Origin: a virus
Length of the DNA stretch: 18,036 bases
Strand: one strand, 5' to 3'
Virus record (IMG/VR): IMGVR_UViG_3300045988_022824
Coordinates: 1 to 18,036 of that record
Within the stretch, counting starts at the first letter, position 1. Each line of letters starts with the position of its first letter. Below the pieces are notes generated by a model. The model was not told the DNA's origin. It searched no databases and worked only from the letters and a program-made list of their open reading frames with translations. The translations under genes were made by a program, and so were the position numbers. This document shows positions 2,336 to 18,036 of the stretch, piece by piece.

Positions 2336-3442
2336 TCACTTTCTTATACCTGATTGCTGTAACAGGCCGCCAAGTATCATGCTAAACTCCGCCTTGATTT
2401 GCGGTGTTTCGAAACGTAGTCGTCCGACGCGGTAGGCGCTTAATATTTTCTGTGTCATGTCGTCGGAACGTTTGAGCATGATGCAATCATTATCGACCAG
2501 TCGGTAGTCAAACGTAAAATCACGGGTGATTTTCGGCTGTTTTTTGGTGATTATATATAGTACTTCGTCGGTATCGTTTAATTGTTGGTATACGTTGAAA
2601 ATACCGTATTCCGTGGTTCTTAGCGTGAAAGCATAACCAGCGTTGTTAAAATCACTGATAAGGGTATTGGCATTGTCCCTAAAATCATTATTGATTGCAT
2701 AATTCGCATAATTTTCGTCATATTCGCGTAAAAACTTTCCGAATCTCGATGTGGCCACCTTTGCGCTGAACCCGCCGTAGTCGGCCAGTTCCACCATGAT
2801 GAACCCGTTGCAATAGCGTTGGTATTGCGTATGATTGTCCAATTGTGGTTTCAGGTTGATATTGAATGCGCTGAAATACGGGTTGGCCAATGTTACGGCG
2901 TTACTGCACATGATAACGCGAACCCTATCATTCCAACGGTCAACCGTATTATAAAACTCCTCCAGCGCGGACACTTCACCGCCCAAATACCGCATATTAT
3001 CGGGGAATATCTCATCAAAGACAATGGTGCGCACTTTGGGGTAGGCGACTGATTTCACTTGTCCGGCCTGACTGAGGGCAATGAAATACCCCATGATATG
3101 CCATGTGGGGCGCGTCTTGCCGTGTTTGTCCGTGATGGCGTCCCTGTCGTCCAACCAGTGACATTCTGCTTGATTGCCGGATACGCGAAACTCAAGTTCC
3201 GGGTATTGTTCCGCTATGTCCGCGCACCATGTGCCCTTGTTTTTCTGTTCCTCTGCGGTACGTCTCAGATAGATGAATTGCCAGCGTTTTTTAATCCAGT
3301 CGCCTACGACCAGTTTTTTGGCTCCGTAGGTTTTTCCGAGACCTCGTGCGCCGACGATGAACATCCAAGGCGCGTGATAGGATAACACGCGCCCATAATC
3401 ATAATAATCACCCTCGGCTAACAGTTTATCCATATGTACCAT
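2336..3442 (-). CDS. DNA encapsidation (packaging) ATPase, phi29 gp16-like
   Basis: Walker A is IVGARGLGKTYG and Walker B is RTIVFDEIF. It is colinear with remembered phi29 gp16 (LSYD..FVIGARGIGKSY, STIVFDEF, EVSALL, NAVS..NPYF). Track ORF 2336..3805 has an R/K-rich N-terminal extension that overlaps the upstream gene, so I start at ATG 3442 (MVHMDKLL). ATG 3433 (MDKLL, like the phi29 gp16 N-terminus) is equally possible. Confidence 0.9.
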   Translation of the reverse strand: MVHMDKLLAEGDYYDYGRVLSYHAPWMFIVGARGLGKTYGAKKLVVGDWIKKRWQFIYLRRTAEEQKNKGTWCADIAEQYPELEFRVSGNQAECHWLDDRDAITDKHGKTRPTWHIMGYFIALSQAGQVKSVAYPKVRTIVFDEIFPDNMRYLGGEVSALEEFYNTVDRWNDRVRVIMCSNAVTLANPYFSAFNINLKPQLDNHTQYQRYCNGFIMVELADYGGFSAKVATSRFGKFLREYDENYANYAINNDFRDNANTLISDFNNAGYAFTLRTTEYGIFNVYQQLNDTDEVLYIITKKQPKITRDFTFDYRLVDNDCIMLKRSDDMTQKILSAYRVGRLRFETPQIKAEFSMILGGLLQQSGIRK

Positions 3443-3464
3443 TATGGCATGACATGCGGACTTT

Positions 3465-4682
3465 TTAGAAGTTCGGTGGGGCACTAGCGCCGTCCCATAC
3501 GACCAGCAGATTATACACAGTCCGATATCGGCTCGGGTATTGCCCGAAAACACCGTCGTTAAGCAGATTATCCAATAAGCCGCCCAATGTGGTTGCCTTC
3601 GGTAGCGCCTCGGCGTATGCCGGGCCTTGATGATATGCCGACGCCCATAGTATTTGCATTTTCGCGTCCGAGTAGACTTGCGGATAATTGTTGTAATCCG
3701 TCTCGAACTGGTTGCGTTGTCCCTGATGTGATTCGGCGCGTTGCGCCCATGTTTTGAACGCCGCCGATTCTGTGGGGGTAAGGGGGCGTGTAAACGTCCC
3801 GCCATTGCTCATGAGCGCCGCTATCTCGGGGCATGTTTTCGCAAACGTCGCGTAGCCTGTCGGGTCGGCGGTTTTCATTGCGTTCAACACGTCCAACCGT
3901 CTGTTAAACGACCATTGCGCAATCCCTATGCCCTGCCTGTTGGCTAATTCTACCGCGTCCCATTGCAATGAGCTTTCCACCGTGCCGATGCAGTAGAGCG
4001 CGTAACTGTTTTTGCCGTTGCCTGTGGATGGCGTGGCTTGGCCGCCCGAGTCACTGGGCGCTTTAACACTACCCTTGGCCTTCCATGTTTGGGCTGTGGT
4101 TTTGTAGAACATCATGGTACCCGCGCCACTGTCGTTGTCGCGGTAATGGTAGATAAGATTGTCGCCCTGTTGTTGTATCCATGTGTCACTGCTGGATGTG
4201 CTACCCGGGTTGTTCGAGCCGGTAGGGTTCGAGCCGCTGTCATTGTCGCCGCCGTCCGGTTTTTTGCGCGGGTGCAGATATCCGATATACGCTTTTTGCA
4301 GTGGGAGTAGTTTATGTACGCTTGGCTCGGGGTTTTGCGTAATCACGTCGATGGAATCGCCCTGTATTCCATCAACGACAATGGCCACGTGTGTTGACGG
4401 GTAATTGGGATAGCAGACCTGCCATATGGCAACATCACCGGGCATAGGGTTCCACGTGTTGTCTTTTTTTTCGAAAATCTCCCCGACTCTTGCGCTTACG
4501 GGATGATGCGTGTATAATCCACCGGCCCAACCGGTAGGGGTGATACAATCCTGAACACTACACCCGTACTCGTCCATGCAGTACTTGGCCCACAAGTCCC
4601 AGCATTGCGGGCCCCAACTGCCGTCCATATCCCAAAAGTGGTTTTCGGTCTGTTTCACCCATGTCTTAAAGCCAACTGCCAT
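3465..4682 (-). CDS. Tail-associated peptidoglycan hydrolase: N-terminal CHAP peptidase plus C-terminal lysozyme/transglycosylase-like domain (phi29 gp13 analogue)
   Basis: CHAP signature: the Cys in GPQCWDL and the His in STHVAIVVDG. A G/S/N-rich linker follows. The C-terminal domain has an ES-type motif (IGTVESSLQWD, GIGIAQWS). It occupies the phi29 gp13 position between the fibres and the lysis/packaging genes. Confidence 0.8.
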   Translation of the reverse strand: MAVGFKTWVKQTENHFWDMDGSWGPQCWDLWAKYCMDEYGCSVQDCITPTGWAGGLYTHHPVSARVGEIFEKKDNTWNPMPGDVAIWQVCYPNYPSTHVAIVVDGIQGDSIDVITQNPEPSVHKLLPLQKAYIGYLHPRKKPDGGDNDSGSNPTGSNNPGSTSSSDTWIQQQGDNLIYHYRDNDSGAGTMMFYKTTAQTWKAKGSVKAPSDSGGQATPSTGNGKNSYALYCIGTVESSLQWDAVELANRQGIGIAQWSFNRRLDVLNAMKTADPTGYATFAKTCPEIAALMSNGGTFTRPLTPTESAAFKTWAQRAESHQGQRNQFETDYNNYPQVYSDAKMQILWASAYHQGPAYAEALPKATTLGGLLDNLLNDGVFGQYPSRYRTVYNLLVVWDGASAPPNF

Positions 4683-4692
4683 ACATACCAGT

Positions 4693-4720
4693 ATACCCCA
4701 CGGCGTCGGCCGTGGGGTAT
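4693..4720 (-). terminator. Perfect 12-bp stem-loop downstream of the fibre gene
   Basis: ATACCCCACGGC-GTCG-GCCGTGGGGTAT lies between the TAG at 4725 and the ATG at 4682. No clear U-tract follows on the minus strand, so it could be a factor-dependent or partial terminator, or an mRNA stabiliser. Confidence 0.5.
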
Positions 4721-4724
4721 GGTG

Positions 4725-5735
4725 CTAGGCGATTGGTGTCAGCGTAGTAGCCAAGTACAGCGATTGGGGGAATGCCGCGTAAACCCTGTCCTGACCTGCG
4801 CACCAATTTGCGCCCTGCTTCGGTAAGACTGAATTATATTGAAATGTGGCCTGAACCCGTCCGTCGGTCGTGACCTTGAACGAGGCGGGCCAGCCACCAA
4901 TACCATGAGATGGGTTCGGGATATTGGCGATATTGGAATCACCCGCCACATAAAAACCCGCGCCAACATAGTAGACGTCCGCGCTTGGACGCATGGAATC
5001 GGGGAGTTGCGCCGCAAGCGTGAAGGAAGCGTTAGACTGGTTCAATCCGCTGATGAGCGCCGCTCCGAAGAATTTAAACGCTCCGATGGTTTCATTATAC
5101 ATGAAGTGCATTTGAGAATTATTCTCTATAAGCGTCACGCCTGAAGACCCTGAATGGGACACGGTTCCCGTTTTCCAGCCTTTAAGCCAAGCGTCACGCC
5201 ATGCCTTAAGCGCCGTAAGCCCTGAAGTGTTGGCGGCGATAAGCTGGTTAAGGTCCTGCGCGGTACCCGGGTATCCGCCCTGCTTGGTAAACGTTGTATC
5301 GGCCTGCGCTCTGGTATACACCTCGGAGGCGTTCGCCTTGCCGTCCACCCTGCCGGAAAGCGAAGACACCGTGCCTTGCAATGCCGTTAACGCGGTGTTT
5401 TCCGCCTTGCCGTTGATAGTGGACATGAGCGATTGTGTGGACGGCAGTGACGTAACGCCGAGCGCATTGAAATAACCATCCAATTCGGTGATATCGCTCT
5501 TGTTGGTCTGCGCAAGCCCTGCCGCATTGTCAGCCGATTTCTTGGCCTCGTCCGCCGCTGTTTTCGCGTTGTTCGCCGCCGCCGTCGCCGTGGTGATATT
5601 GGTAGCGTTCGTGTACATCTGATTATCAATCGCAGTCATGGCGTCGGTGAAGTCACCGCGCCATGATGGCCTATCATTCGGATTGTCGCCGAACGTCGGC
5701 AGATTATAATGACCGGTGTGCTGTGTAGTAGACAT
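4725..5735 (-). CDS. Tail fibre / receptor-binding protein
   Basis: Track ORF 4725..5795 was trimmed to ATG 5735 (MSTTQHTGHYNL...). GGGAG lies 7 nt upstream, and ATG 5741 is an alternative. The N-terminal ~45 aa are paralogous to the gene at 5752..6120. An Ala/Asn/Thr-rich helical segment and a C-terminal globular domain follow. Position is as for the phi29 appendage genes. Confidence 0.7.
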   Translation of the reverse strand: MSTTQHTGHYNLPTFGDNPNDRPSWRGDFTDAMTAIDNQMYTNATNITTATAAANNAKTAADEAKKSADNAAGLAQTNKSDITELDGYFNALGVTSLPSTQSLMSTINGKAENTALTALQGTVSSLSGRVDGKANASEVYTRAQADTTFTKQGGYPGTAQDLNQLIAANTSGLTALKAWRDAWLKGWKTGTVSHSGSSGVTLIENNSQMHFMYNETIGAFKFFGAALISGLNQSNASFTLAAQLPDSMRPSADVYYVGAGFYVAGDSNIANIPNPSHGIGGWPASFKVTTDGRVQATFQYNSVLPKQGANWCAGQDRVYAAFPQSLYLATTLTPIA

Positions 5736-6757: not shown

Positions 6758-7552
6758 TTACTCCCATTCTCCATAATTATAGCAGTTACTGAAAATAGTA
6801 TCATACGACCCCCACACCTGCATGAAACACGGTTCGAGACTCCTCACGACTTCCATGTCCACGTTGATAATCGCCTGCCGGTACTCCTGTATCAGACTCA
6901 CGGCGCTCTGACTACGCCCGGTCACATGACTCCTGCCCTTGGAATTGCTTGAATCATGCTGGTAGTCGGTCGCGCTTTGCGCCGTGGTGTGGCTGGTTGA
7001 ATCCTGCGAACTGGACGCGGTGCCGGAACTGTCCGCCTGCGACTCGTTGGCATGGCTGGCGTAGCGGGAAAAATCGCCTTGCACGCCGGTCTGCGGCACG
7101 TCGCTATCGAAACTTCTCGACGTGGTGGTGCTGGAATTATCCGACTTGCTGGTGCTGTTGCTGGTGGAATCCTGCGTACTGGACGCCTTGCCCGACGACT
7201 GGGATTCACTGCCGTTCTCGCTGTCCGTCGTCATGTCCATAGAGTCCAGCGGGTTATATTCCATGTCCAATGTCCGATAGCGCTCATTGAAATACGGCAT
7301 GATTTCCGCCATAGTCATACCCAAGTAGAAGACGAACATCTGCGCGGTTTCCTGACCAATCTCCCTCAGCGCATAATGTCGGATGATTTTCTCATTCAAC
7401 TCCGCGCGGTGGTTCTCATCGTGAATCGGGTAATAGTCTGCGCTGAGATGTAGTTTAGTGTCCGTGTCGTAGCCCATGTTAATGAGGTTGCCGAGGGTTT
7501 CGGTGTACTCCCCCGGCGTTGTCATTGCATAGGCGCTGAAGTCCTGTGTCAC
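6758..7552 (-). CDS. Lower collar protein (phi29 gp11-like) with an S/T-rich C-terminal half
   Basis: The segment YPIHDENHRAELNEKIIRHYALREIGQETAQMFVFYLGMTMAEIMPYFNERYRTL matches the pattern I remember for Picovirinae lower collar proteins. It lies directly downstream of the portal gene. GTG at 7552 overlaps the portal TGA (GTGA), and ATG 7525 is an alternative. Confidence 0.7.
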   Translation of the reverse strand: MTQDFSAYAMTTPGEYTETLGNLINMGYDTDTKLHLSADYYPIHDENHRAELNEKIIRHYALREIGQETAQMFVFYLGMTMAEIMPYFNERYRTLDMEYNPLDSMDMTTDSENGSESQSSGKASSTQDSTSNSTSKSDNSSTTTSRSFDSDVPQTGVQGDFSRYASHANESQADSSGTASSSQDSTSHTTAQSATDYQHDSSNSKGRSHVTGRSQSAVSLIQEYRQAIINVDMEVVRSLEPCFMQVWGSYDTIFSNCYNYGEWE

Positions 7553-8499
7553 AACACACCTCCGATACCCGCATCATATGAGGCGGGCATGTCAATATCA
7601 GTAGTACCGCCGGCGCTGGAATCAAGCGCGTTGGGCACGCCGGAGCTTTGCGCGTCCGCATACTCAACCCAGATGTTCAATTGCGGCCACAATCGGTTAA
7701 TCTCGGTCGCCGCCGCCTGCCGTGCCTTAAGAAAACTCAACCGGAACACGTCCGTTTTCTCATTAGCCTGCGCCACCTCATCGGAAATAAGCCGTTCCTT
7801 TTTCTCGGTGCCGCTGGACTGGATGCCGAGATACCCCAGTACCTCGTTGGTCACTTGGGTTTTCTGCTGGATGAACTTGTCCAACAGATACGGCGTCGTG
7901 TTGGGCCACGGCTGGAACATGCTACCGGGGTCGAGCGAGACGTAGCCTATGATATAATCCTGACCATCCTGTCGCTGTTGCAACATGTTCTGCACGGTGA
8001 GCTTGGTGCGTGGGTCGGCGGTGATGATGGTCGGCAGTTTCAGACTCTCCAAGTTCACGTCATACGCCTTGTCGATATCCGCCAAGCGTCGCGCGTACTG
8101 CCATAGGATATCCTTGAAACTCATGCGCATACGATTATCCCAAATCGGGATGCACTCGCGGCCCGCCTTGAGTTGCTTGTAATGATAGTTGACGCCAACC
8201 GGCTCAAATGAGGTAGGATTATTGTACACGTTCAACCGGCCTTGATATCCGGCTTGTGTCACGAGGAACCTGCCGATACGCTTGTCCTCGAAGAACAACG
8301 CGCACCCGTATTCACAGAGACACATTTCCAACCATCGTTCATCCACGGTGGGCGGCAACCCCCGCCAACTGAACCGGTTCAACGCCAGTTCCGCCAGCAA
8401 ATGATAGTACATTGCATCAAGGTCGGCGGCGCGCGTTTTCGCGTAATTGCCACGCGGATGCAACGCGCCCCCGACCCTGTTTTTTCTAGACCTGCTCAT
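7549..8499 (-). CDS. Portal / upper collar connector protein (phi29 gp10-like)
   Basis: Colinear with remembered phi29 gp10: basic N-terminus MSRSRKNR; FSWRGLPPTVDERWLE versus FEWENLPPTINPSFLE; GTEKKERLISDEVAQANE versus LEKKERMVTDEVSSNDE. Similar length (316 aa). Confidence 0.9.
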   Translation of the reverse strand: MSRSRKNRVGGALHPRGNYAKTRAADLDAMYYHLLAELALNRFSWRGLPPTVDERWLEMCLCEYGCALFFEDKRIGRFLVTQAGYQGRLNVYNNPTSFEPVGVNYHYKQLKAGRECIPIWDNRMRMSFKDILWQYARRLADIDKAYDVNLESLKLPTIITADPRTKLTVQNMLQQRQDGQDYIIGYVSLDPGSMFQPWPNTTPYLLDKFIQQKTQVTNEVLGYLGIQSSGTEKKERLISDEVAQANEKTDVFRLSFLKARQAAATEINRLWPQLNIWVEYADAQSSGVPNALDSSAGGTTDIDMPASYDAGIGGVL

Positions 8500-8511
8500 A
8501 CTACCATCATA

Positions 8512-10839
8512 TCACTCATAGCTGATGCCCGGCAGTGGCTCATTATCCGCCCAGTCGGTCACACCAATATACTCGGGCTTGCTCCATACGGTCACACCCC
8601 GCTCGAACATGCCCTTGATAGTCAAGCGGTATTCCTCCGGCAGAGTGCCCCTCACATAAGCCCCCTGCATCTGCCAAAAAGTGAATTTCTCCATGCATTC
8701 CAACGAGGCGGGCGGGGTAATGAAACGTTGGACAAAATACCCATAGCGTAGCATGTACTCGCCTGCGGCCCTCAGAGCACTGGGGGCGCACGTCTTGAAC
8801 CTGACCAACACGCCCATGATGCCATTGCTCAGGTTGAACATGTCACCACCGAGCGCGCCCGAAGTGGTTGGCGGCGTCAACTGCATTTGCTGGACTTGCG
8901 CGTTGATTCCCGCAATGGCGTTCTGGTAGTCGCCTTGTGCGGCGTAGGCGGCCAGACCGTAATTGGCCTGTGAGGTGATGGCATTGAGTTGGTTGCCCAA
9001 TGCGGTTGCGCCGCTTGCATAGGCGTTCGCCTGTGAGGTTGATGCCGTATTGGTGGCAATCTGATTCGCCGTACTGGCCGCGGCGGTCGAGTTTGAAATC
9101 GCCGCCGAGGAATTGATGCCGTGGTTGGCTATGTCCATTTGCGCGGTGCCGAGGAACGCGCCGCCGATGGCGTTCGCCACCCCCAGCGGGTTACGAGAGG
9201 CAATGGCGTTCAGGCTGCCGCCGATGGCTCCCGCCATGCCATTGAGATTGTTGCTGCTGATGTTCTGCTGCACCTGCAAACCGGCCATCTGACTGGTTCG
9301 GTCCTGACTGATGGCAAGGGACTGGTTCAACGAGTTTGCCGCAATCGCATTGCTGGCGGTGCGGTTCTCGTTGCCCAAGTTGGTTTGCCGTGCGGCGTAT
9401 TCGCGTTGCCACATTGCGTTTGAATTGGCGACATCCGCGGACGCCAATGCTTTTTGTCGTGTCCATTGCGCGGATTCCTGAGCGTAGGCGCGGGTGTATG
9501 CACTGTTCGCCATAGCCAATGCGCCGCCGTTGTTGACAACGCTGAAATGAGGGAGGTTGGTGACGCCGAAGCTTGCGTTAAGCATTTCACCGCCGTCAAT
9601 CGGCAGACCACACCCCTGATTGTTGATTTGGAGTGGGGTCAGCGTGTCCGCTCCGGCCTCATTGTATCCGGGGATGTAGAAATTGATTCGTGTACCGGAC
9701 GGGGCATAGGTGTATGTTTCCCTGATAGTGAGGTTATCTGACTGGATATCCTCCGGTCGATAGTTGACTGTCGTGCCGTTGAGGCAACTGCATTCCACGA
9801 CGCAATAGGGATAGCAACGGAGTTTACGGAGGTTGCGGTAGCGTTGCGGGATATTGAAAAGACTTCTGAAATTGTCTACCGTCATGATATCCTCGTAACG
9901 CATGTCCGAGTCCACGCCGCTTTGGAAACCATAGACTCGTCCATGTTGCGCGTCAACCGACTGGCCGTAGATTTGTGTTACCTCCTGACCATAGCGGTTG
10001 ATGTAATCCTGTGGGATTTTCGGCACCATGTACACGGCGCAACTGCCTTGGGTAATCCACGGGTATGATGTGCCAGCCGCCATGATGTTCCATACGTAAC
10101 TCATTCGGGAGTCACAATAGTAGACATTGCATCCATCCGTCGCACCCTCGAATATGCTGCCCGTCGCCGTACTCAAATCGGGTTTCGACTCACTGCCGGG
10201 GGATTTGGTCAAATCCGTGGTGCTTACGATGATAACGCCATAATCAACCCAATTCAATCCACCATGCACGGTGTCCAAATGCTCCCCGGATATGATGGAA
10301 TGATACCGTTGCGCCGTCGTCACCATTTCACTGCCGGTGTCCAGACCCTCCGGCAGTGCCAGATAGGTGCGCCCGTAACCATTCCACTGGCGTTCATTGG
10401 CCACACCGATGTGACCACGGGTCACATAGCAACTGCCGAACGTGACATCATGCTGGAAACTCTGCCACACGTCCAGCATCAAAACCAGTTGCGTGCAATG
10501 GGCGTTGACGTATTCGACGCGCTGGATGAAGTAATACCATGCGCGCGGCCCCTCCAACCCGGGGTAATCATTGTAGGCCACCAGATAATTCCAGTTCGAC
10601 GCCTCATTAAATGGGAGTTCGACGCGGGCGGGCGCGTTGAAAATATGCATGGTGGCCGGACGGCATTCCACGCCATCCAGCTTGTCAAACCATTGTTCTT
10701 GTGTTTCACGTGAAACAAACCGCACTACATCCCGGTAGGATGCATCCCACGGGACACGGCAGAGTTTCAACGTGGTGTTTGGCGTCCATTCTGCCCATGA
10801 AAAATTAGCTTCTACGTAGGGGTTTGCGTCGTCAATCAT
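8512..10839 (-). CDS. Tail knob / distal tail tube protein (phi29 gp9-like)
   Basis: Track ORF 8512..10947 was trimmed to ATG 10839 (MIDDANPY...). GGAGG lies 7 nt upstream, and ATG 10845 is an alternative. The N-terminus LCRVPWDASYRDVVRFVSRETQEQWF resembles the gp9-type start. It sits between capsid and portal as in phi29. A long A/N/S/Q/G-rich insert spans about 8870..9510. Confidence 0.8.
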   Translation of the reverse strand: MIDDANPYVEANFSWAEWTPNTTLKLCRVPWDASYRDVVRFVSRETQEQWFDKLDGVECRPATMHIFNAPARVELPFNEASNWNYLVAYNDYPGLEGPRAWYYFIQRVEYVNAHCTQLVLMLDVWQSFQHDVTFGSCYVTRGHIGVANERQWNGYGRTYLALPEGLDTGSEMVTTAQRYHSIISGEHLDTVHGGLNWVDYGVIIVSTTDLTKSPGSESKPDLSTATGSIFEGATDGCNVYYCDSRMSYVWNIMAAGTSYPWITQGSCAVYMVPKIPQDYINRYGQEVTQIYGQSVDAQHGRVYGFQSGVDSDMRYEDIMTVDNFRSLFNIPQRYRNLRKLRCYPYCVVECSCLNGTTVNYRPEDIQSDNLTIRETYTYAPSGTRINFYIPGYNEAGADTLTPLQINNQGCGLPIDGGEMLNASFGVTNLPHFSVVNNGGALAMANSAYTRAYAQESAQWTRQKALASADVANSNAMWQREYAARQTNLGNENRTASNAIAANSLNQSLAISQDRTSQMAGLQVQQNISSNNLNGMAGAIGGSLNAIASRNPLGVANAIGGAFLGTAQMDIANHGINSSAAISNSTAAASTANQIATNTASTSQANAYASGATALGNQLNAITSQANYGLAAYAAQGDYQNAIAGINAQVQQMQLTPPTTSGALGGDMFNLSNGIMGVLVRFKTCAPSALRAAGEYMLRYGYFVQRFITPPASLECMEKFTFWQMQGAYVRGTLPEEYRLTIKGMFERGVTVWSKPEYIGVTDWADNEPLPGISYE
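10702..10717. repeat. Perfect 16-bp palindrome TGTTTCACGTGAAACA (copy 1 of 3 of the core GTTTCACGTGAAAC)
   Basis: Read directly from the sequence. It lies inside the tail knob gene, where it encodes F-V-S-R-E-T on the minus strand. Confidence 0.95.
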
Positions 10840-10858
10840 TGTCATGCCTCCGGTACGG

Positions 10859-10899
10859 CAAGGCCCGGAGCGCTCACGTGGGTTGCGCTCCGGGCCTTG
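10859..10899 (-). terminator. Perfect 15-bp stem-loop just downstream of the capsid gene (possible partial terminator or mRNA stabiliser)
   Basis: CAAGGCCCGGAGCGC-TCACGTGGGTT-GCGCTCCGGGCCTTG. A second 8-9-bp hairpin (GAGAGAGT...ACTCTCTC) lies at about 10916..10946. No U-tract is present. It lies between the capsid stop (10952) and the tail knob start. Confidence 0.5.
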
Positions 10900-10951
10900 T
10901 ATTGCATCTCGCCGTGAGAGAGAGTAGCCAACCGGCCACTCTCTCATTATA

Positions 10952-12067
10952 TCACGCGGTCACGGTCACATTCTTCCTGCCGGATACGCCAAACAGCGTG
11001 GCGGTGATATCAGACGTGCCCTGCTTGACACCCTCGACGACACCCGACTCGGACACTGTGGCGTTGGCCGGGGTGCCGGACGTCCATGCGGCTTGCGCGG
11101 TCACGTCGGCGGTTCGCCCGTCAATCATGGTCGCCGTAGCGGTCGCCTGCGCCGTATGACCCGTGGCCACATTCGAGACGTTGACGGCAATCGATGCGAT
11201 AATCGACGGATTAAATCCGATAACACCCTCGCCAACCACCGGCACGTCCAAGGCGGCGGACACGGTGCCCGGCACCTCCGGTGTCGCCGGATTCGTGTAT
11301 AGGGCGGTCGCCGTCACCGGGATAGTGGTGTTCGGTTCGTCGAGACCGACGACCAGCACGCCGGTGGGTGAAATATACGTGTAATCACTCTTCGGCTTAA
11401 CGGTGTCTCCGATGGCGTACTCAACCGCATTCGACCGGAACGTAGCCGTGCCATCGTTGGAGATGGTCGTATCGGCAGTGACCTGCACCGCACCGCCACG
11501 CGCCACGTCCGACGGCGTGGTCGTGCCACCGCCGTACATGGTGAGCTTAAGTTCAAAGGTCGGCGTCTTGGCCGTCGTTCCGGTCGGTGCCGCCATCTTG
11601 GCGGTGGAGCCCGCTCCGGTCCAGAACATGACGGCGGGGGCGAAGCCGGACACGCTGATGATGTGCTGGACGTGCAGGTAATGGTTGACCGAGTTGATGT
11701 TCACCGGGTTGGTCTGCTGGGTCATCTCATTGATAACGGGAATATCAATGAGGAATTTGTCGGTGGTGAGGATGGCTTGCACGCCGTCCATGCCGAACCT
11801 GTCTTGTGGGATTACGATAATCCGGTCGATGGTCGGTTCCGCGTCCGTACGCTGGAACACGGTCGCGAGGCCCTGCACGTCAAGCGCGGACTTGACTTCA
11901 GGGGAGCAGAACAGTACGAGTTCGTCCGGGCGGGCGAACGTCGGCATGTGACGCGCGTTATACCGGGTGGATACGAATTTCAGCGTGTCCGCCCATGCTC
12001 GAATCTGGCGCAACATGTCGCGGGCGTCGGTTTCCGTCGAACCCATGTCGTTAAGGTCATGGTTCAT
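10952..12067 (-). CDS. Major capsid protein, C-terminal portion (phi29 gp8-like HK97-fold part plus C-terminal Big_2-type Ig-like domain)
   Basis: Colinear with the second half of remembered phi29 gp8 (e.g. HYLHVQHIISVSGFAPAVMF versus YYHVWQTLSVSRFANAVAF). The C-terminus VTAQAAWTSGTPANATVSESGVVEGVKQGTSDITATLFGVSGRKNVTVT is Big_2-like. This ORF is in the same frame as track ORF 12077..12382, separated only by a TAG and three codons. Confidence 0.85.
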   Translation of the reverse strand: MNHDLNDMGSTETDARDMLRQIRAWADTLKFVSTRYNARHMPTFARPDELVLFCSPEVKSALDVQGLATVFQRTDAEPTIDRIIVIPQDRFGMDGVQAILTTDKFLIDIPVINEMTQQTNPVNINSVNHYLHVQHIISVSGFAPAVMFWTGAGSTAKMAAPTGTTAKTPTFELKLTMYGGGTTTPSDVARGGAVQVTADTTISNDGTATFRSNAVEYAIGDTVKPKSDYTYISPTGVLVVGLDEPNTTIPVTATALYTNPATPEVPGTVSAALDVPVVGEGVIGFNPSIIASIAVNVSNVATGHTAQATATATMIDGRTADVTAQAAWTSGTPANATVSESGVVEGVKQGTSDITATLFGVSGRKNVTVTA

Positions 12068-12681
12068 ATGGACACGCTAGTAGCCGCCCAGCTTAGCATA
12101 CTCGACGAACTGGTGGCACATGGCCTCGAACAAGTCAACCTCGGCCGCATTGTAACAGGAGGTGAGAATCTGGGAGGTGAGCGAGGCCAGACCGTTTTCT
12201 GAGGTGAACGCGCGTTGTAGTGTCTTGTCGTCCGTGGTGGCGGGGTAGAAGTGGGCGAAGTCAAGACGGTGGTAGAGCTGTCCACGTCGATTTTCCACTT
12301 GCGGAAATTGTCCGCGCCCAAGTATTCCGCGTCGGGGTCGTACACCTGTGCGAGCGGCATACCTACGGCGATTTCCTGCCACGTATCACCATACGTCTGA
12401 GAGGCACGCTGGAACACGCCAAGAGGGTTGTTCCAACGCCATGTGTTCACGTAGGTGCCGCCGATACGGTTCACTAGCGCCGAGTAAAACTCGTTCTTCA
12501 ACTGGGTGGACGACATGAGGGTGGCCATCTGCCTGTCCATGTTCATTTGGGTGGCCGAGGGCATACGCCTCTGATATTCGGGGGATGCCTCGTTGCGAAT
12601 CATGTTGAGAATCTGCGCGTTGTTGAATTCGGTGAGCGGGCGCAACTGCTGTTTTGGCGTCACTACTGGAGTGGTTGGCAT
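12064..12681 (-). CDS. Major capsid protein, N-terminal portion (frame is lost after about codon 130)
   Basis: ATG at 12681 has AGGAAGGAA 8 nt upstream. The first ~130 aa align with the phi29 gp8 N-terminus (NMIRNEASPEYQRRMP..., NEFYSALVNRIGGTYVNTWRWNNPLGVF). After ...NFRKWK the translation turns into P/S/T/R-rich junk, while the homologous sequence continues in the -1 frame (track ORF 12077..12382: ENRRGQLYHRLDFAHFYP...YNAAEVDLFEAM...). Confidence 0.85.
   Translation of the reverse strand: MPTTPVVTPKQQLRPLTEFNNAQILNMIRNEASPEYQRRMPSATQMNMDRQMATLMSSTQLKNEFYSALVNRIGGTYVNTWRWNNPLGVFQRASQTYGDTWQEIAVGMPLAQVYDPDAEYLGADNFRKWKIDVDSSTTVLTSPTSTPPPRTTRHYNARSPQKTVWPRSPPRFSPPVTMRPRLTCSRPCATSSSSMLSWAATSVSI
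12077..12079 (-). other. In-frame TAG (amber) codon inside the capsid reading frame
   Basis: Minus-strand reading: ...GGC GGC TAC TAG CGT GTC CAT ATG AAC..., i.e. ...LGGY*RVHMNHDL..., with capsid homology on both sides. Confidence 0.9.
12291..12294 (-). other. Frame-change point in the capsid gene (A4 run in the mRNA sense)
   Basis: The minus-strand sequence AAG TGG AAA ATC GAC (frame A) has to become ...GAA AAT CGA CGT GGA CAG (frame B). One extra A in the run would give KWKNRRGQLYH and make the whole 10952..12681 span a multiple of three. Confidence 0.8.
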
Positions 12682-12703
12682 GATAATTATTCCTTCCTAA
12701 TCA

Positions 12704-13045
12704 CTAGTCTTCAAATAGGTCGTCGAACGTGGAATAGGTGCCGTTGTAGTCGTCGTCGGTCATTTCCGTGGCGTCCGGCCCCTCGTCGCCGTCCGGGCCG
12801 TCGTTCAGCACGTGGTCTGCGGCGGCGTCGCGCATTGCCTCAATGGTTTTGGATAGTTCCGCCACGGTCGCTTCCAAAGCGCTGAGACGGTTGGCCATGT
12901 CGGCGTCCTTGTCGTCGCCCGCATCCTCCGGTTCGGTGTCGTCCTGCGTTTCAGGCTCCGGGTTCGGCGTATTGTCGTCGGCGGTCGCGTCCGGTTCAAC
13001 GTCGGGCGTGGTGTCCGGCTTGTCGTCGGTTTCTGTGTCGTCCAT
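12704..13045 (-). CDS. Acidic helical protein, putative scaffolding protein (phi29 gp7 position)
   Basis: ATG at 13045 has AAGGGG 5 nt upstream (the track ORF starts at GTG 13051). The protein is 113 aa and extremely D/E/T-rich, with a central amphipathic helix (ANRLSALEATVAELSKTIEAMRDAAADH). It lies immediately upstream of the capsid gene. The stop is TAG followed by TGA. Confidence 0.55.
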   Translation of the reverse strand: MDDTETDDKPDTTPDVEPDATADDNTPNPEPETQDDTEPEDAGDDKDADMANRLSALEATVAELSKTIEAMRDAAADHVLNDGPDGDEGPDATEMTDDDYNGTYSTFDDLFED

Positions 13046-13051
13046 ATTCAC

Positions 13052-13093
13052 CCCTTAAAGGAAAAGGCACGGCGTCAATCACGACGCCGTGCC
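13052..13093 (-). terminator. Intrinsic terminator-like hairpin plus U-tract at the end of the replication module
   Basis: On the minus strand: GGCACGGCGTC-GTGATT-GACGCCGTGCC followed by TTTTCCTTT. The stem is a perfect 11 bp. The U-tract runs straight into the AAGGGG ribosome-binding site of the next gene. Confidence 0.65.
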
Positions 13094-13231
13094 GGATTGC
13101 TAGGCTGTGCGGGTTCCCTCGCCGTCGCTGGGCGCTGGCTACGCACGTCTACATCCGACCGAACCGCCTTACCGATTGCCTTACGGTCGGGCCACCGAAT
13201 CGACTTGGGACGCACACCCCGCTGTTAGTTA

Positions 13232-14692
13232 TTATAGCACGAAACTATGGCCGTCATCATTGAGATGGCGTGACCCCGGCAGAAACTCATCATAGGGGAT
13301 GGGGGCGGCACGATGCACGCCACTCAAACGCATTACCGTATCGCCACTCGTTTCCACACCGCAATATTTGCGATTGCCGAGAATACGGAGCCTCTCATAG
13401 GTGTGGTCGTTTTTCCACGCGCCTAGTTTCCGGTCATCCGTTTCGATTCCCATAGGCGCGTCCAGCCCCTCCAATATCATGCCGTCGGTATCGGCATAGA
13501 GCACGCGCCCGGCGTTCGCGTTCATGGCGCGGGATAGTATTTGCCGACCGTAGGCGTTTACATAAGCGGCGGTCGGCAACCACGCCAGACTGTTGGCCGA
13601 CTCGGGCTTGTCCACGGTAAAATCAACGCCCCCGTCCGCCGATGGTTTCGGATGCAACATGGGCCGGTAGAGCGAGGCCCCGAATTTCCCCACCAGCGAG
13701 TTCAACAACAGTTTCGCCATCTGCTTGCGCTCCCCGGTGGCGGTTTGTTTCACGTGAAACCATTTGTCCACGTATGAGTAGTAGAGTCCATGTGATTTGC
13801 GGAACTTCCAACCGCCGATATGCTCCCACACGTGGATATCGTAGTTTTCGGTCAGCGTTTCCAAGTCCACATCGGTGACTGGCATAGTGACGACGCCAAG
13901 CGTACTATCCAAGCGTTCACCCTCATACCCCCACACGGGTAGGATGTTAGTGAGCGTCGCCGTTTTCCCCGCTTTCAATCTTGCGTCAAACGCCATGACA
14001 TCGATATGGAGCGGATAATCAGAGTCGTGGTGATACTCCCCGTCATACCATATGGGTGAGCCTGTCGGCATGGGGGCGTCTCGCATGATACTCGGGTAGA
14101 GACTGTTCACGTCCCAACTCCTGCAATCCCGATATTCGCCCGGCTTGCTGTACACTATCGCCCCATAGTAGGCGGGACGCATCCGATGGTAAACCTCTTT
14201 ATCCAATGGCGGGAAATGCCGTCTGAACCCGGCGTAATCCCCGTCGATATAATCGGTCATTGCCATAGACGCTATGGTCGTGCCCTTGAGGTGCAGTGCG
14301 GCGCATTCCTGCGCGATATTCCACGTGGTTTCCAAATCATCCGCACCGCCAAATGTTTCACGTGAAACATCCAGTCCGTCATCACGCGTGACATTACGCA
14401 CGTCCAGAAAATCCACGGTGATGCCGCCCATGCGCACACGAAAACTATAGAAGTTGCCGCGAATGTTGAACGTGCCCCACACGCCGTCCTTGGCCGGGTT
14501 TGACTGCAAGGGGAGTCGTGTCAACAGTTCGGCGGCTATGGGCTTGATATCCTGCCATCCGTGGGCGCACCATACTCTCGTATGATGGTCAAGCATGGTG
14601 AGACGTATGATGGCGTTTGCCGTCAATGGTTCCGCGCCGTCATCCGTCAATAGTGTTGCGCCGTCTGTTGCCGCCGTCCGACGCTCTTTCAT
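13232..14692 (-). CDS. Protein-primed family-B DNA polymerase (phi29 gp2-like), short form
   Basis: Motif A is WDVNSLYPS, motif B is KLLLNSLVGKFG and motif C is LYADTDG. Strongly colinear with remembered phi29 DNAP in the TPR1, palm and TPR2 regions (DYPLHIDVMAFDARLKAG versus DYPLHIQHIRCEFELKEG; VDKWFHVKQTATGERKQMAKLLLNSL versus IDKWTYIKTTSEGAIKQLAKLMLNSL). It is only 486 aa, against about 575 for phi29. AAGGA lies 7 nt upstream of the ATG. Confidence 0.95.
   Translation of the reverse strand: MKERRTAATDGATLLTDDGAEPLTANAIIRLTMLDHHTRVWCAHGWQDIKPIAAELLTRLPLQSNPAKDGVWGTFNIRGNFYSFRVRMGGITVDFLDVRNVTRDDGLDVSRETFGGADDLETTWNIAQECAALHLKGTTIASMAMTDYIDGDYAGFRRHFPPLDKEVYHRMRPAYYGAIVYSKPGEYRDCRSWDVNSLYPSIMRDAPMPTGSPIWYDGEYHHDSDYPLHIDVMAFDARLKAGKTATLTNILPVWGYEGERLDSTLGVVTMPVTDVDLETLTENYDIHVWEHIGGWKFRKSHGLYYSYVDKWFHVKQTATGERKQMAKLLLNSLVGKFGASLYRPMLHPKPSADGGVDFTVDKPESANSLAWLPTAAYVNAYGRQILSRAMNANAGRVLYADTDGMILEGLDAPMGIETDDRKLGAWKNDHTYERLRILGNRKYCGVETSGDTVMRLSGVHRAAPIPYDEFLPGSRHLNDDGHSFVL
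13747..13760. repeat. Perfect 14-bp palindrome GTTTCACGTGAAAC (copy 2 of 3)
   Basis: Read directly from the sequence. It lies inside the polymerase gene, where it is read as W-F-H-V-K-Q, a different frame from copies 1 and 3. Confidence 0.95.
14353..14370. repeat. Perfect 18-bp palindrome ATGTTTCACGTGAAACAT (copy 3 of 3)
   Basis: Read directly from the sequence. It lies inside the polymerase gene (N-terminal domain), where it encodes D-V-S-R-E-T-F. Confidence 0.95.
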
Positions 14693-14704: not shown

Positions 14705-15649
14705 TTAGTGTCGTGCCGCGCTGGTCATCCATTCATCAAGTCGTGTCTCTACATCTCCCGCATCCGCCTTGGTCTCCCATTTATGTGTCTTATCATTATA
14801 CCATGCGGCTTCACGTACCACGGTGCTGAAATTCGTGTTGTTTATCAGCCATCGTTTTTGACGGTTCGACAAAGACGCGAATCTTTGGGAGATGCTGGAG
14901 TCAAACGCTTCAAGTTGCTGTTCGACCCTATCAAAATCCGCAACCCCCTCGCTCTCGGGAATCTTTCCAGCACCTGCATGTAATGGCGCTCGACCTATAA
15001 GCCCGGCGTATTCGAGTATCTCCCGTTCAAGTTTCCTCCTACCTCCCTCTCGTATCATCGTACGCGCGTGGCTTATGCCACGCTCCGAGCCGAACACGTT
15101 AGCCCGAGTGCGTGTGAGTTCGTCACGCGCCGAACCGCCAACCGTATGAGTACCCAACACATCGAACGGCGACTCTCCAGCGCGTTCCATCTCACGCACT
15201 TCGGCTACGGTATAGCGGGCCAAGGTCAACGCCTCGAACTGTTGGGCGCGTTTGATTTTTCGCCGTGCCTCGATACGGCGGCGCTGTTGCTGTCGTAATG
15301 TTTTCCGACGTTTCGGCGGGGCGGCGGCGATTTCCGCGTCGGTAATCAACGGACGCGCCGCCAGTTCCCTATCGAGTTTCGTAATATGCACATCCGGGAC
15401 AACCTGATACGGCTCGTTATCCCGCGCCCTCAAGGCTTGCTGTTGTTCCCCAAACTCCCGTCCGACACGGCGTGCTACCTGTTCGAGTTGCTGGGCGCTG
15501 AGTTTTCCTAGGAACGTTTCGGTGATTTGCTTGGGGAGACGTCCAGTACTGTAATCTCTGACCGCTTGCTCTCGGCGTACCTGTGCCGACCTGATGGCGG
15601 CGTTGCGTTTCAGGTTGTTGGCGCGTCGATTGTTTTTACGTTTTGCCAC
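14705..15649 (-). CDS. Putative terminal protein (priming protein; phi29 gp3 position)
   Basis: It lies immediately upstream of, and is nearly contiguous with, the polymerase gene, as in phi29-like phages. The N-terminus is highly basic (MAKRKNNRRANNLKRNAAIR), there are Arg/Lys-rich internal stretches, and the length is 314 aa. GTG at 15649 has AAGGAGAG 8 nt upstream. The call rests on synteny and composition, not on recognised sequence similarity. Confidence 0.6.
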   Translation of the reverse strand: MAKRKNNRRANNLKRNAAIRSAQVRREQAVRDYSTGRLPKQITETFLGKLSAQQLEQVARRVGREFGEQQQALRARDNEPYQVVPDVHITKLDRELAARPLITDAEIAAAPPKRRKTLRQQQRRRIEARRKIKRAQQFEALTLARYTVAEVREMERAGESPFDVLGTHTVGGSARDELTRTRANVFGSERGISHARTMIREGGRRKLEREILEYAGLIGRAPLHAGAGKIPESEGVADFDRVEQQLEAFDSSISQRFASLSNRQKRWLINNTNFSTVVREAAWYNDKTHKWETKADAGDVETRLDEWMTSAARH

Positions 15650-15777: not shown

Positions 15778-16215
15778 TTACTTGCGGTCTTTTTCCGACA
15801 CAAGTTCAAGGTCGAAAAACTTATAGCCACGGCGACTCTTCTTCTCAACCACCTTAAGCACAAGAGGATGGTCCCACGTGTCCGGCGTGCCGAAAATGGC
15901 GAACAGATTACCAAAAGCGTGCGCCAACGTGGGCGAGGCGGCGGCAAAGTCACCTTCCTCAGCGTGGATAACAACGCGGGTGGAGGAGTTGATTTCACCC
16001 GTCTCTTGATTGGCTACCTCGATGGCCTGCGCCAGCACATTAGTGACATGCAGTGGTTCATTGAGATGTTCATCAACCTTATCGGAGGTCTGCATGGCGT
16101 TATACAACGCCATTTTACCATCCATAGTGTCAGTGTTGAAGAAATGGGACACGGCGTTAGCACCGTTAGCCGCAAAATTGTTGCCGTTTGCTACGGTGAG
16201 TTCGTTGTCAGCCAT
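15778..16215 (-). CDS. Putative phage single-stranded DNA-binding protein (lactococcal-phage SSB-like family)
   Basis: 145 aa. The layout ...LHVTNVLAQAIEVANQETGEINSSTRVVIHAEEGDFAAASPTLAHAFGNLFAIFGTPDTWDHPLVLKVVEKKSRRGYKFFDLELV matches my recollection of the small phage SSB family found in Firmicute phages. Its position upstream of TP and DNAP parallels phi29 gp5. AAGGAAAGG lies upstream of the ATG. Confidence 0.5.
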   Translation of the reverse strand: MADNELTVANGNNFAANGANAVSHFFNTDTMDGKMALYNAMQTSDKVDEHLNEPLHVTNVLAQAIEVANQETGEINSSTRVVIHAEEGDFAAASPTLAHAFGNLFAIFGTPDTWDHPLVLKVVEKKSRRGYKFFDLELVSEKDRK

Positions 16216-17089: not shown

Positions 17090-17332
17090 TCAACACCTCT
17101 CCACCAACAACGTATCAGCCAACGCCCTCGCATCAACCAGCATATGAGCCACCTGAGCATAATCACACGCATCAAACGTCACAGCCGACCAAACCAAACG
17201 ACGCCCGCCACTATCCTGAGACCGCACCGCATACCGCAGTTCATACGTCCGATTATGAGGACAATACACCAGACACACATCCCCAGACTCAAACTTGGAC
17301 GGGAACACGGACACAACCTCATCACTCGCCAT
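17090..17332 (-). CDS. Hypothetical small early protein
   Basis: This is the inner part of track ORF 17090..17596. ATG at 17332 (MASDEVVSVFPSKF...) is preceded by GGGGAGGAG about 10 nt upstream and overlaps the end of the upstream gene by 11 nt. The longer N-terminal extension is L/R/C/V-rich junk from the skewed composition. Confidence 0.5.
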   Translation of the reverse strand: MASDEVVSVFPSKFESGDVCLVYCPHNRTYELRYAVRSQDSGGRRLVWSAVTFDACDYAQVAHMLVDARALADTLLVERC

Positions 17333-17592: not shown

Positions 17593-17793
17593 TCACGCTT
17601 CTTCGAACGCTTCAATAAAATCATCATTCGGGAACGAATCGCAATCATTATAATCTTCGATAGTCATATTGTTAACCACCGCCACATAATGCAGATTCTC
17701 AACAATCACATCAATATCAAAATCGGCGAGTTGCTGACCACTATTCATAATGTAATCCTCGGCGTAATCCTTAATAATGCTATTGTTAATCAT
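17593..17793 (-). CDS. Small, very acidic early protein (first gene inward of the right ITR)
   Basis: A strong ribosome-binding site is present (AAGGAAGGAAG, then 6 nt, then ATG). The protein is 66 aa and very D/E/N-rich (…DFDIDVIVEN…EDYNDCDSFPNDDFIEAFEEA). The gene is locally AT-rich compared with its neighbours. No family recognised. Confidence 0.65.
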   Translation of the reverse strand: MINNSIIKDYAEDYIMNSGQQLADFDIDVIVENLHYVAVVNNMTIEDYNDCDSFPNDDFIEAFEEA

Positions 17794-17826
17794 TTTTTAC
17801 TTCCTTCCTTATCGGTTGATACTCAC

Positions 17827-17835
17827 ATCATACCA
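17827..17835 (-). promoter_or_regulatory. Candidate extended -10 promoter element (TGgTATGAT on the minus strand) reading inward from the right ITR edge
   Basis: It is the mirror image of the left-end element and straddles the ITR boundary, about 35 nt upstream of the ATG at 17793. Confidence 0.35.
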
Positions 17836-18036
17836 CACCACAAAACACAACACACCCAACAACACAAAAAACAACACACTCAAACCATGAACAAAACAAC
17901 ACACCAAAAAACATAAAACACAACAACACACAAAACCGACAACAGAAAAGAACGCAACAAAAAACAAAACAACAAGGACGACAACAAGAAACAGAACAAG
18001 AACAAGGATAAAAAACAAAGAACAAAGAACAACAAC
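17830..18036. repeat. Right inverted terminal repeat (207 bp, perfect)
   Basis: It is the exact reverse complement of 1..207, verified block by block. Confidence 0.95.

Follow-up and report, generated by a model that had tools for sequence, protein, structure and literature searches.

parS sites in the coding sequence of a phi29-like phage lineage with Bifidobacterium as its predicted host

In ParABS chromosome segregation systems, ParB loads on DNA as a cytidine triphosphate (CTP)-dependent clamp, and the partition complex engages ParA and SMC. The ParB site parS has the consensus TGTTNCACGTGAAACA in both Bacillus subtilis and Corynebacterium glutamicum, is exactly GTTTCACGTGAAAC in Mycobacterium smegmatis and TGTTTCACGTGAAACA in Hyphomonas, and in its consensus form is common to Firmicutes, Actinobacteria and Proteobacteria (PMC7022226). 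Each of the 12 OMM12 gut genomes, one of them a Bifidobacterium, has been reported to contain ParABS homologues and consensus-type parS (PMC10197239). The genome of phage phi29 has five parS sites, and Spo0J takes part in its segregation into the prespore (PMC2731898). Neither parS nor Spo0J is mentioned in a 2024 review of the diversity of phi29-like phages. Here we describe three parS sites in the IMG/VR virus record IMGVR_UViG_3300045988_022824 (hereafter the window, meaning the whole analysed stretch of DNA), a complete linear phi29-like genome of 18,036 bp with 53% G+C, in which the sites lie inside the tail and DNA polymerase genes.

Three exact copies of a parS palindrome

The palindrome GTTTCACGTGAAAC was found in three exact copies, at 10703-10716, 13747-13760 and 14355-14368, and a scan of the whole window allowing up to 2 mismatches found no site beyond these three. 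The genes that carry them are encoded on the minus strand, with copy 1 in the tail gene and copies 2 and 3 in the polymerase gene. The first site, parS-1 (10702-10717), reads TGTTTCACGTGAAACA, matches the parS consensus at 16/16 positions and occupies codons 78-82 of the tail gene, which encode V-S-R-E-T. parS-2 (13746-13761) reads TGTTTCACGTGAAACC, matches at 15/16 positions and encodes W-F-H-V-K-Q in the polymerase gene, and parS-3 (14354-14369) again reads TGTTTCACGTGAAACA (16/16), encodes V-S-R-E-T and sits inside an 18-bp palindrome, ATGTTTCACGTGAAACAT, at 14353-14370. The first-pass annotation of this sequence had recorded three exact copies with extended forms, with copies 1 and 3 translated as V-S-R-E-T and copy 2 as F-H-V-K-Q, and the coordinates, flanks, genes and frames obtained here all agree with it. 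Its placement of the copies around the early/late junction holds only loosely, as two sites lie 0.7-1.3 kb upstream of the terminator-like hairpin at 13066-13093, while the third lies 2.4 kb inside the late genes. Copies 1 (10703-10723) and 2 (13740-13760) in addition share 21 nt in inverted orientation, GCGGTTTGTTTCACGTGAAAC, extending 6-7 nt past the palindrome. This CGGTTT/AAACCG flank is common in relatives without being fixed, and the likeness may be due to chance, to a coding constraint on the R-F and Q-T-A codons or to an extended contact.

The repetition is not a matter of chance, as the first-pass annotation had held. Dinucleotide shuffles (n = 200) gave a mean of 0.06 motif matches, and three or more matches in 0/200. 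We also ran the codon-shuffle check which that annotation had proposed, permuting synonymous codons within each gene so that proteins and codon usage were kept. In 2000 such shuffles no 14-bp palindrome ever reached three copies, and the core itself appeared as a single copy in 151/2000 and as two copies in none.

By sequence, the palindromes are canonical chromosomal parS, the landing site of the host ParB/Spo0J. A chromosomal parS is a 16-bp palindrome matching TGTTNCACGTGAAACA, usually with at most 2 mismatches, and here two sites match in full and one with a single difference. The first-pass annotation, which knew of no such element among phi29-like phages, was therefore wrong on this point, as the 16-mer is the canonical parS (PMC7022226) and phi29 has five of them (PMC2731898). 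Indeed, when the same scan was applied to phi29 (NC_011048) as a positive control, it recovered four copies of TGTTTCACGTGGAACA and one site with 2 mismatches, five in total; it also found two sites in B103 and one in Clostridium phage CI130P1, within the polymerase gene of the latter. The earlier suggestion of an operator for a dimeric phage or host regulator came close in its host version, ParB being a dimeric DNA-binding protein of the host. An apparently mysterious repeat is thus a named element with a known protein partner.

Weaker CCACGT-type elements near each copy had also been pointed out. They are present as sequence, but they are not parS-like and are mostly unconserved: in two of them the synonymous positions differ freely among relatives, and the third, CCACGTGG at 14321-14328, is moderately conserved and has only the CACGTG core in common with parS. 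We therefore rejected them as parS half-sites or conserved partners.

Selection on the sites and their distribution

Megablast of the whole window against GenBank phages gave no match, and relatives were found through their proteins. At least 114 are present in IMG/VR, and the best 80 of them have polymerases 88-94% identical in protein. As these relatives share descent, the conservation statistics below set sites against others in the same alignments and should not be read as formal probabilities.

Both polymerase sites keep the exact motif in most of the best 80 relatives. Among 69 unique polymerase sequences, the third-codon positions of site 3 have minor-allele fractions of 0.029, 0.058, 0.087 and 0.015, whereas at the flanking Gly codons all four bases occur, with fractions of 0.46-0.62; when the 215 four-codon windows of the polymerase gene are ranked from most to least constrained, site 3 comes second and site 2 11th. 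At site 1 the fractions at four third-codon positions are 0-0.028, compared with a local mean of 0.19 in the tail gene, and the synonymous positions of site 2 other than the consensus 'N' have fractions of 0.016-0.031. Across the three motifs, 11/12 degenerate third-codon positions fall below 0.1, whereas in the background of the two genes the share of such positions is about 0.3 (polymerase) and 0.46 (tail). The lone exception is the 'N' position itself. The sole common variant, a TTT-to-TTC change in about 20% of sequences at site 2, gives GTTCCACGTGAAAC; the change lies at the 'N' of TGTTNCACGTGAAACA, yields the form found in B. subtilis and breaks the stem that a hairpin would need. In the same 69 polymerase sequences, variation above 10% is thus confined to the free position 5 of the parS consensus, all other degenerate positions having minor-allele fractions below 0.09.

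The protein at site 2 points the same way. F-H-V is specific to this lineage and occupies a variable polymerase position between an invariant W and an invariant K, where relatives without parS have GDL, SGL, YKR or TYI; the polymerase has been adapted so as to spell the site. Taken together, the two reading frames and the near-fixed synonymous positions amid variable neighbours bear out, for DNA, the earlier proposal that the element is maintained as nucleic acid and not for a peptide that the copies have in common, as does the same motif in non-coding DNA of relatives. The conservation test at synonymous positions that the first-pass annotation had called for thus gave a positive answer, and the sites are under DNA-level selection.

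Placement was compared in 81 related genomes, a site being counted when it had no more than 1 mismatch. Roughly half of the relatives have another tail allele, F-E-S-P-Q-K, encoded by GAATCACCGCAGAA, in place of site 1; in these genomes a parS lies instead some 230 nt upstream, between the capsid and tail genes. There it forms the top of a longer perfect palindrome, aagggagtGTTTCACGTGAAACactccctt, which is followed by a T-run and folds at -20.9 kcal/mol. The third site is tail-coding in 37/81 genomes, intergenic in 38/81 and both in 0/81, with neither in 6/81, some of which are truncated contigs. The simplest reading is selection for a parS in that region of the genome, whatever its coding context. 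Tail-allele type and polymerase similarity do not track each other, indicating mosaicism.

A fourth, intergenic parS follows the presumed receptor-binding gene in 17 genomes, 13 of them with the exact core, and adjoins a hairpin equivalent to that at 4683-4727 of the window. The cassette of this site is also found in MT836241, a faecal contig with a polymerase that shares only about 35% identity with that of the window, and it therefore travels by recombination. The arrangement of hairpin, parS and hairpin before the CHAP lysin gene (L085, 10780-10920) is near-identical in MT836241 and in the window's lineage, which indicates a recent exchange of modules between the two.

Within this part of the phi29-like group, parS is restricted to one lineage. 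At up to 2 mismatches, none was found in the isolated Bifidobacterium phages checked, nor in Av-1 (Actinomyces), Cp-1 (Streptococcus), P68 (Staphylococcus), Swim (Arthrobacter) or GA-1 (Bacillus). In 80 IMG/VR loci of the sister lineage resembling Bifidobacterium phage BP1 (L234-L313, 1.18 Mb), no parS core was present even at 1 mismatch, compared with about 3 sites per genome in the window's lineage. Across IMG/VR, the exact 16-mer occurs in at least 120 contigs, and among the 80 inspected about 17 encode a phi29-type polymerase, portal or ATPase. Six low-GC contigs (37-41%; L135, L094, L101, L158, L153 and L159) have 3-6 parS each, with 6 in the 12.1 kb of L135; most of them encode a phi29-type polymerase, portal or ATPase, L094 having a weak portal match only. 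Carriage of parS is thus recurrent but patchy in the phi29 supergroup.

Predicted host and possible role

The host is very probably a Bifidobacterium, as judged from protein similarity. The closest isolated phages are the collinear Bifidobacterium podophages BP1, BD811P1-3 and the BadAztec group, with tail proteins 47-49% and polymerases about 36% identical to those of the window. Over its full length the endolysin shares 60-71% identity with amidases annotated on the chromosomes of B. bombi, B. aemilianum, B. margollesii and Bifidobacterium sp. SO1, and the catalytic domain is 77% identical to its counterpart in B. dentium phages. When one genome per species was scanned with the endolysin alignment, the isolate genomes with a relative were all Bifidobacterium, except for a 37%-identical match in Eggerthella sinensis. 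A scan with the endolysin alone gave no confirmed relative. The endolysin relative in P0014, an NCBI-sourced 34.9-kb contig, was considered as an isolate carrying the phage and rejected, as this is a metagenome contig in which the phage is apparently joined to a different one. Four contigs of about 30 kb with an endolysin relative of similar score (52-53% identity; L220-L223) occur in rumen metagenome-assembled genomes labelled Ruminococcus, Bacteroidales and Fibrobacter; most likely these are phage contigs binned into unrelated genomes.

Bifidobacterium does not form spores. Given their match to the consensus, the three sites are very likely bound by the host ParB. ParABS homologues and consensus-type parS are on record for the OMM12 Bifidobacterium (PMC10197239), and identical parS for other Actinobacteria (PMC7022226). 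No ParB, ParA or other recognisable DNA-binding regulator of the phage itself was detected in any open reading frame (ORF) with Pfam and PHROGs at lenient thresholds. The explanation we prefer, and consider probable, is that the host ParB loads on the phage parS sites and thereby couples phage DNA to host segregation or retention. After injection, ParB dimers would load at the sites, and their CTP-dependent clamps would build a partition complex engaging ParA and SMC and, by analogy with phi29, tying the 18-kb linear, terminal-protein-capped genome to the machinery that segregates the host origin. When lytic growth is delayed, phage DNA could in this way be positioned, kept and handed to daughter or dormant cells, which would be a sporulation-independent counterpart of the Spo0J/parS-dependent trapping of phi29 in the forespore. 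Retention and inheritance of stalled genomes are proposed as the likeliest benefit because the predicted host does not sporulate. That the purpose is segregation or retention, rather than another effect of ParB, we hold at slightly less than an even chance. We put forward only tentatively the broader proposal that phi29-like phages of Bifidobacterium, a gut commensal without sporulation, independently acquired three to four copies of the host centromere and keep them under purifying selection, while a sister lineage has none.

Several observations weigh against this explanation. Entrapment in spores, the only phage-parS role with experimental support, cannot apply in the predicted host, because Bifidobacteria are non-sporulating. 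The sister lineage and the isolates propagate without parS, and the sites are therefore dispensable for basic propagation. Moreover, a few members of the window's own lineage have degraded sites with 2-4 mismatches, and no copy of the phage, hence no sign of a carrier state, was found in isolate genome assemblies.

ParB bound to the phage could also act in other ways. Amplified phage DNA, adding parS copies by the hundred, might titrate ParB, and hence ParA and SMC loading, away from the host origin, and the disturbed host segregation, replication control or division would then favour the phage. The identity of the sites and the selection on them speak for this as much as for retention, a density of 3-4 sites per 18 kb compares with 1-10 per bacterial chromosome (PMC10197239), and the keeping of multiple copies that are regionally replaceable fits a dosage effect. 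However, parB mutants of most bacteria are mild in phenotype, which leaves the gain unclear (PMC7022226), the sister lineage on the same host genus manages without sites, and the role demonstrated for phi29 is transport of the genome and not titration (PMC2731898), so that we regard titration as unlikely. We give still less credence to the idea that ParB, loaded at the polymerase sites and at the site near the start of the tail gene, spreads or slides and thereby damps transcription or replication, so that lysis is delayed at high ParB levels or in certain host states. Two of the sites do lie in the polymerase gene, the last of the early genes, a short distance upstream of the early/late terminator, and the third site of relatives is built into the terminator-like capsid-tail hairpin; ParB spreading is also known to silence neighbouring genes in plasmid systems. 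Yet none of the sites coincides with a promoter-like element, the positions of the fourth site and of those in other phi29-like phages are scattered, and chromosomal ParB usually has little effect on transcription.

Explanations that dispense with ParB fare worse. A different dimeric regulator, encoded by the phage or a host transcription factor, could recognise the same palindrome, in keeping with 14-18 bp of perfect symmetry, DNA-level conservation and several early proteins without an assigned function. This is very unlikely, as every base agrees with the universal parS and the tolerated variant is its 'N'; most unassigned early proteins are also present in relatives without the site, the only lineage-specific one (66 aa, 17593-17793) is strongly acidic and unlike a DNA binder, and no helix-turn-helix or ribbon-helix-helix domain was detected. 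A hairpin in RNA or single-stranded DNA, a reading also offered in the first-pass annotation, might serve in processing, in pausing or as a mark on the strand displaced in protein-primed replication. The intergenic version in relatives, with its stable fold and U-rich tract, may double as a terminator, and rare symmetric double changes such as GTCTCACGTGAGAC occur. But the core hairpin reaches only -2.3 kcal/mol, and in context the folds of sites 1 and 2 are not more stable than those of shuffled sequence (z = 0.0 to -1.3); once 25-nt flanks are included, the minimum-energy fold no longer contains the hairpin of site 1. The T-to-C change at core position 4, which is the most frequent variant, disrupts a pair of the stem, 'loop' bases are as conserved as 'stem' bases, and no Rfam family matches. 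On these grounds a hairpin signal is highly improbable. We attach next to no weight to the two remaining ideas, a restriction, modification or nicking target and a repeat that arose by chance or hitch-hiking. CACGTG, a type II restriction palindrome, lies within the motif and had led to the proposal of a methyltransferase or nuclease target, but CACGTG is neither avoided nor enriched in the window (10 observed, 9.4 expected, i.e. chance frequency) and conservation spans all 14-16 bases. Chance is excluded by both types of shuffle, and hitch-hiking by common descent alone would leave the alternative coding and intergenic placement unexplained.

If the broader proposal is correct, use of the host ParB would be a general strategy of small lytic phages independent of sporulation, and not a spore trick specific to Bacillus. 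It might allow stalled genomes to be inherited in a carrier state, or serve to sabotage host segregation, and parS content could mark 'virulent' gut phages able to persist in dividing cells. The density of host-type parS may accordingly serve in gut virome screening as a genomic marker of phages that interact with host chromosome dynamics. A testable question follows, namely what a small lytic phage gains from recruiting the host partition protein outside sporulation.

Genome context and comparison with known systems

The window is bounded by inverted terminal repeats of 223 bp (1-223 and 17814-18036, 98% complementary), which are presumably protein-primed replication origins. They are built from short G/T-rich repeats (GTTGTT, GTTTTTT), with an extreme strand skew reaching about 800 bp inwards. 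All major genes are on the minus strand. From the right end, they include a phi29-type single-stranded-DNA-binding protein (15778-16215), a 314-aa ORF in the position of the terminal protein (14705-15649) and the protein-primed family-B DNA polymerase that carries parS-2 and parS-3 (13232-14692; PF03175, E = 1e-35; phrog_1907, E = 6e-54). The strong terminator-like hairpin at 13066-13093, with a 12-bp stem and a T-run on the minus strand, lies 3' of the polymerase gene and marks the early/late boundary. The capsid gene (about 10952-12681), the gp9-like tail (knob) gene that carries parS-1 (8512-10947; phrog_2248, E = 1e-84), the upper collar (7549-8499) and the lower collar (6758-7552) follow. 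Further left are the CHAP lysin (3465-4682), the gp16-type packaging ATPase (within 2336-3805), the holin (1961-2332) and the amidase endolysin (1235-1957). An intergenic inverted repeat at 4683-4727, minus strand, separates the presumed receptor-binding gene from the CHAP lysin gene and has no parS in the window.

The ATPase ORF (2336-3805) overlaps the CHAP lysin ORF by about 340 nt; its true start is probably near 3400, because the Pfam match begins at residue 134. Near the left end, a perfect GC-rich hairpin (803-827) scores as a terminator on both strands, and the left-end genes may converge on it. The minus-strand ORF at 218-664 may be spurious, with a plus-strand ORF at 485-760 or 501-797 as the real gene, as in BP1 and BD811P2. 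Asp and Glu are very abundant in the 66-aa early protein encoded at 17593-17793 on the minus strand, which lacks a homologue among the isolated Bifidobacterium phages; we take it to be reminiscent of small acidic DNA-mimic inhibitors such as phi29 p56. An Rfam scan of the whole window matched no family, packaging RNA (pRNA) included, at E <= 1, and a packaging RNA, if present, is too divergent for the current Rfam model.

The major capsid gene of the window is broken twice in comparison with about 79 relatives that have a single 576-aa ORF, by a 1-nt deletion (AGCC to AGC) near 12279 and by an in-frame TGG-to-TAG change at 12077-12079. The sequence may therefore represent a defective variant or contain sequencing or assembly errors. 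The parS sites are nevertheless corroborated by about 80 independent genomes.

The closest known system is the parS of phi29 and B103/Nf, bound by the host Spo0J for spore entrapment (Meijer et al. 2005, as summarised in PMC2731898). Like phi29, the window is a linear genome in the 18-19-kb range with a protein-primed polymerase and gp9-, gp10-, gp11- and gp16-like genes, and it carries the host-type 16-bp parS in several copies (three in the window and 3-4 in its relatives, five in phi29, two in B103). In both, the sites are mostly in coding sequence, with one type at or in a terminator hairpin: the phi29 site at 17244 abuts terminator TD1, and relatives of the window have a parS in the capsid-tail hairpin. 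The positions themselves differ, as the phi29 sites are in genes 10/11, 12, 15 and 17 and at the end of gene 16, whereas those of the window are in the polymerase and tail genes, and this lack of homology points to independent acquisition. The genes of the window are all on one strand, unlike those of phi29, and its variant, TGTTTCAC...GAAACA, differs from the B. subtilis-type TGTTCCAC/GTGGAACA. Most importantly, Spo0J carries phi29 DNA into the forespore of a spore-forming host, while the host predicted here, Bifidobacterium, is non-sporulating and lacks Spo0A. In the phi29 strategy, Spo0A boxes (TGTCGAA) at the early and late promoters hold back the lytic cycle. The window contains 1 such box where 2.9 are expected, inside coding sequence, and the boxes are thus not enriched. 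By sequence the element is thus a parS, and it departs from the spore-entrapment system of phi29 in its predicted host and in its Spo0A boxes.

Compared with chromosomal parS, the sites of the window are identical to TGTTNCACGTGAAACA, have the M. smegmatis parS as their core, are palindromic and few in copy number, and their degenerate position behaves alike. They differ in lying on a virulent-type phage genome rather than near oriC, without parA or parB alongside and at about one site per 5-6 kb. The parABS systems of P1, N15 and mycobacterial extrachromosomal prophages likewise place a centromere-like site on a mobile element for its inheritance, but these elements have their own ParA and ParB with an element-specific parS. 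In contrast, no ORF of the window has a ParA or ParB domain in Pfam or PHROGs, and its sites copy that of the host chromosome, so that they would depend on the host protein. Phage-borne parS was already known from phi29; what is added here is a host context outside sporulation, in which phage-borne parS is under selection although the host most likely makes no spores, with a related parS-less lineage as a natural control.

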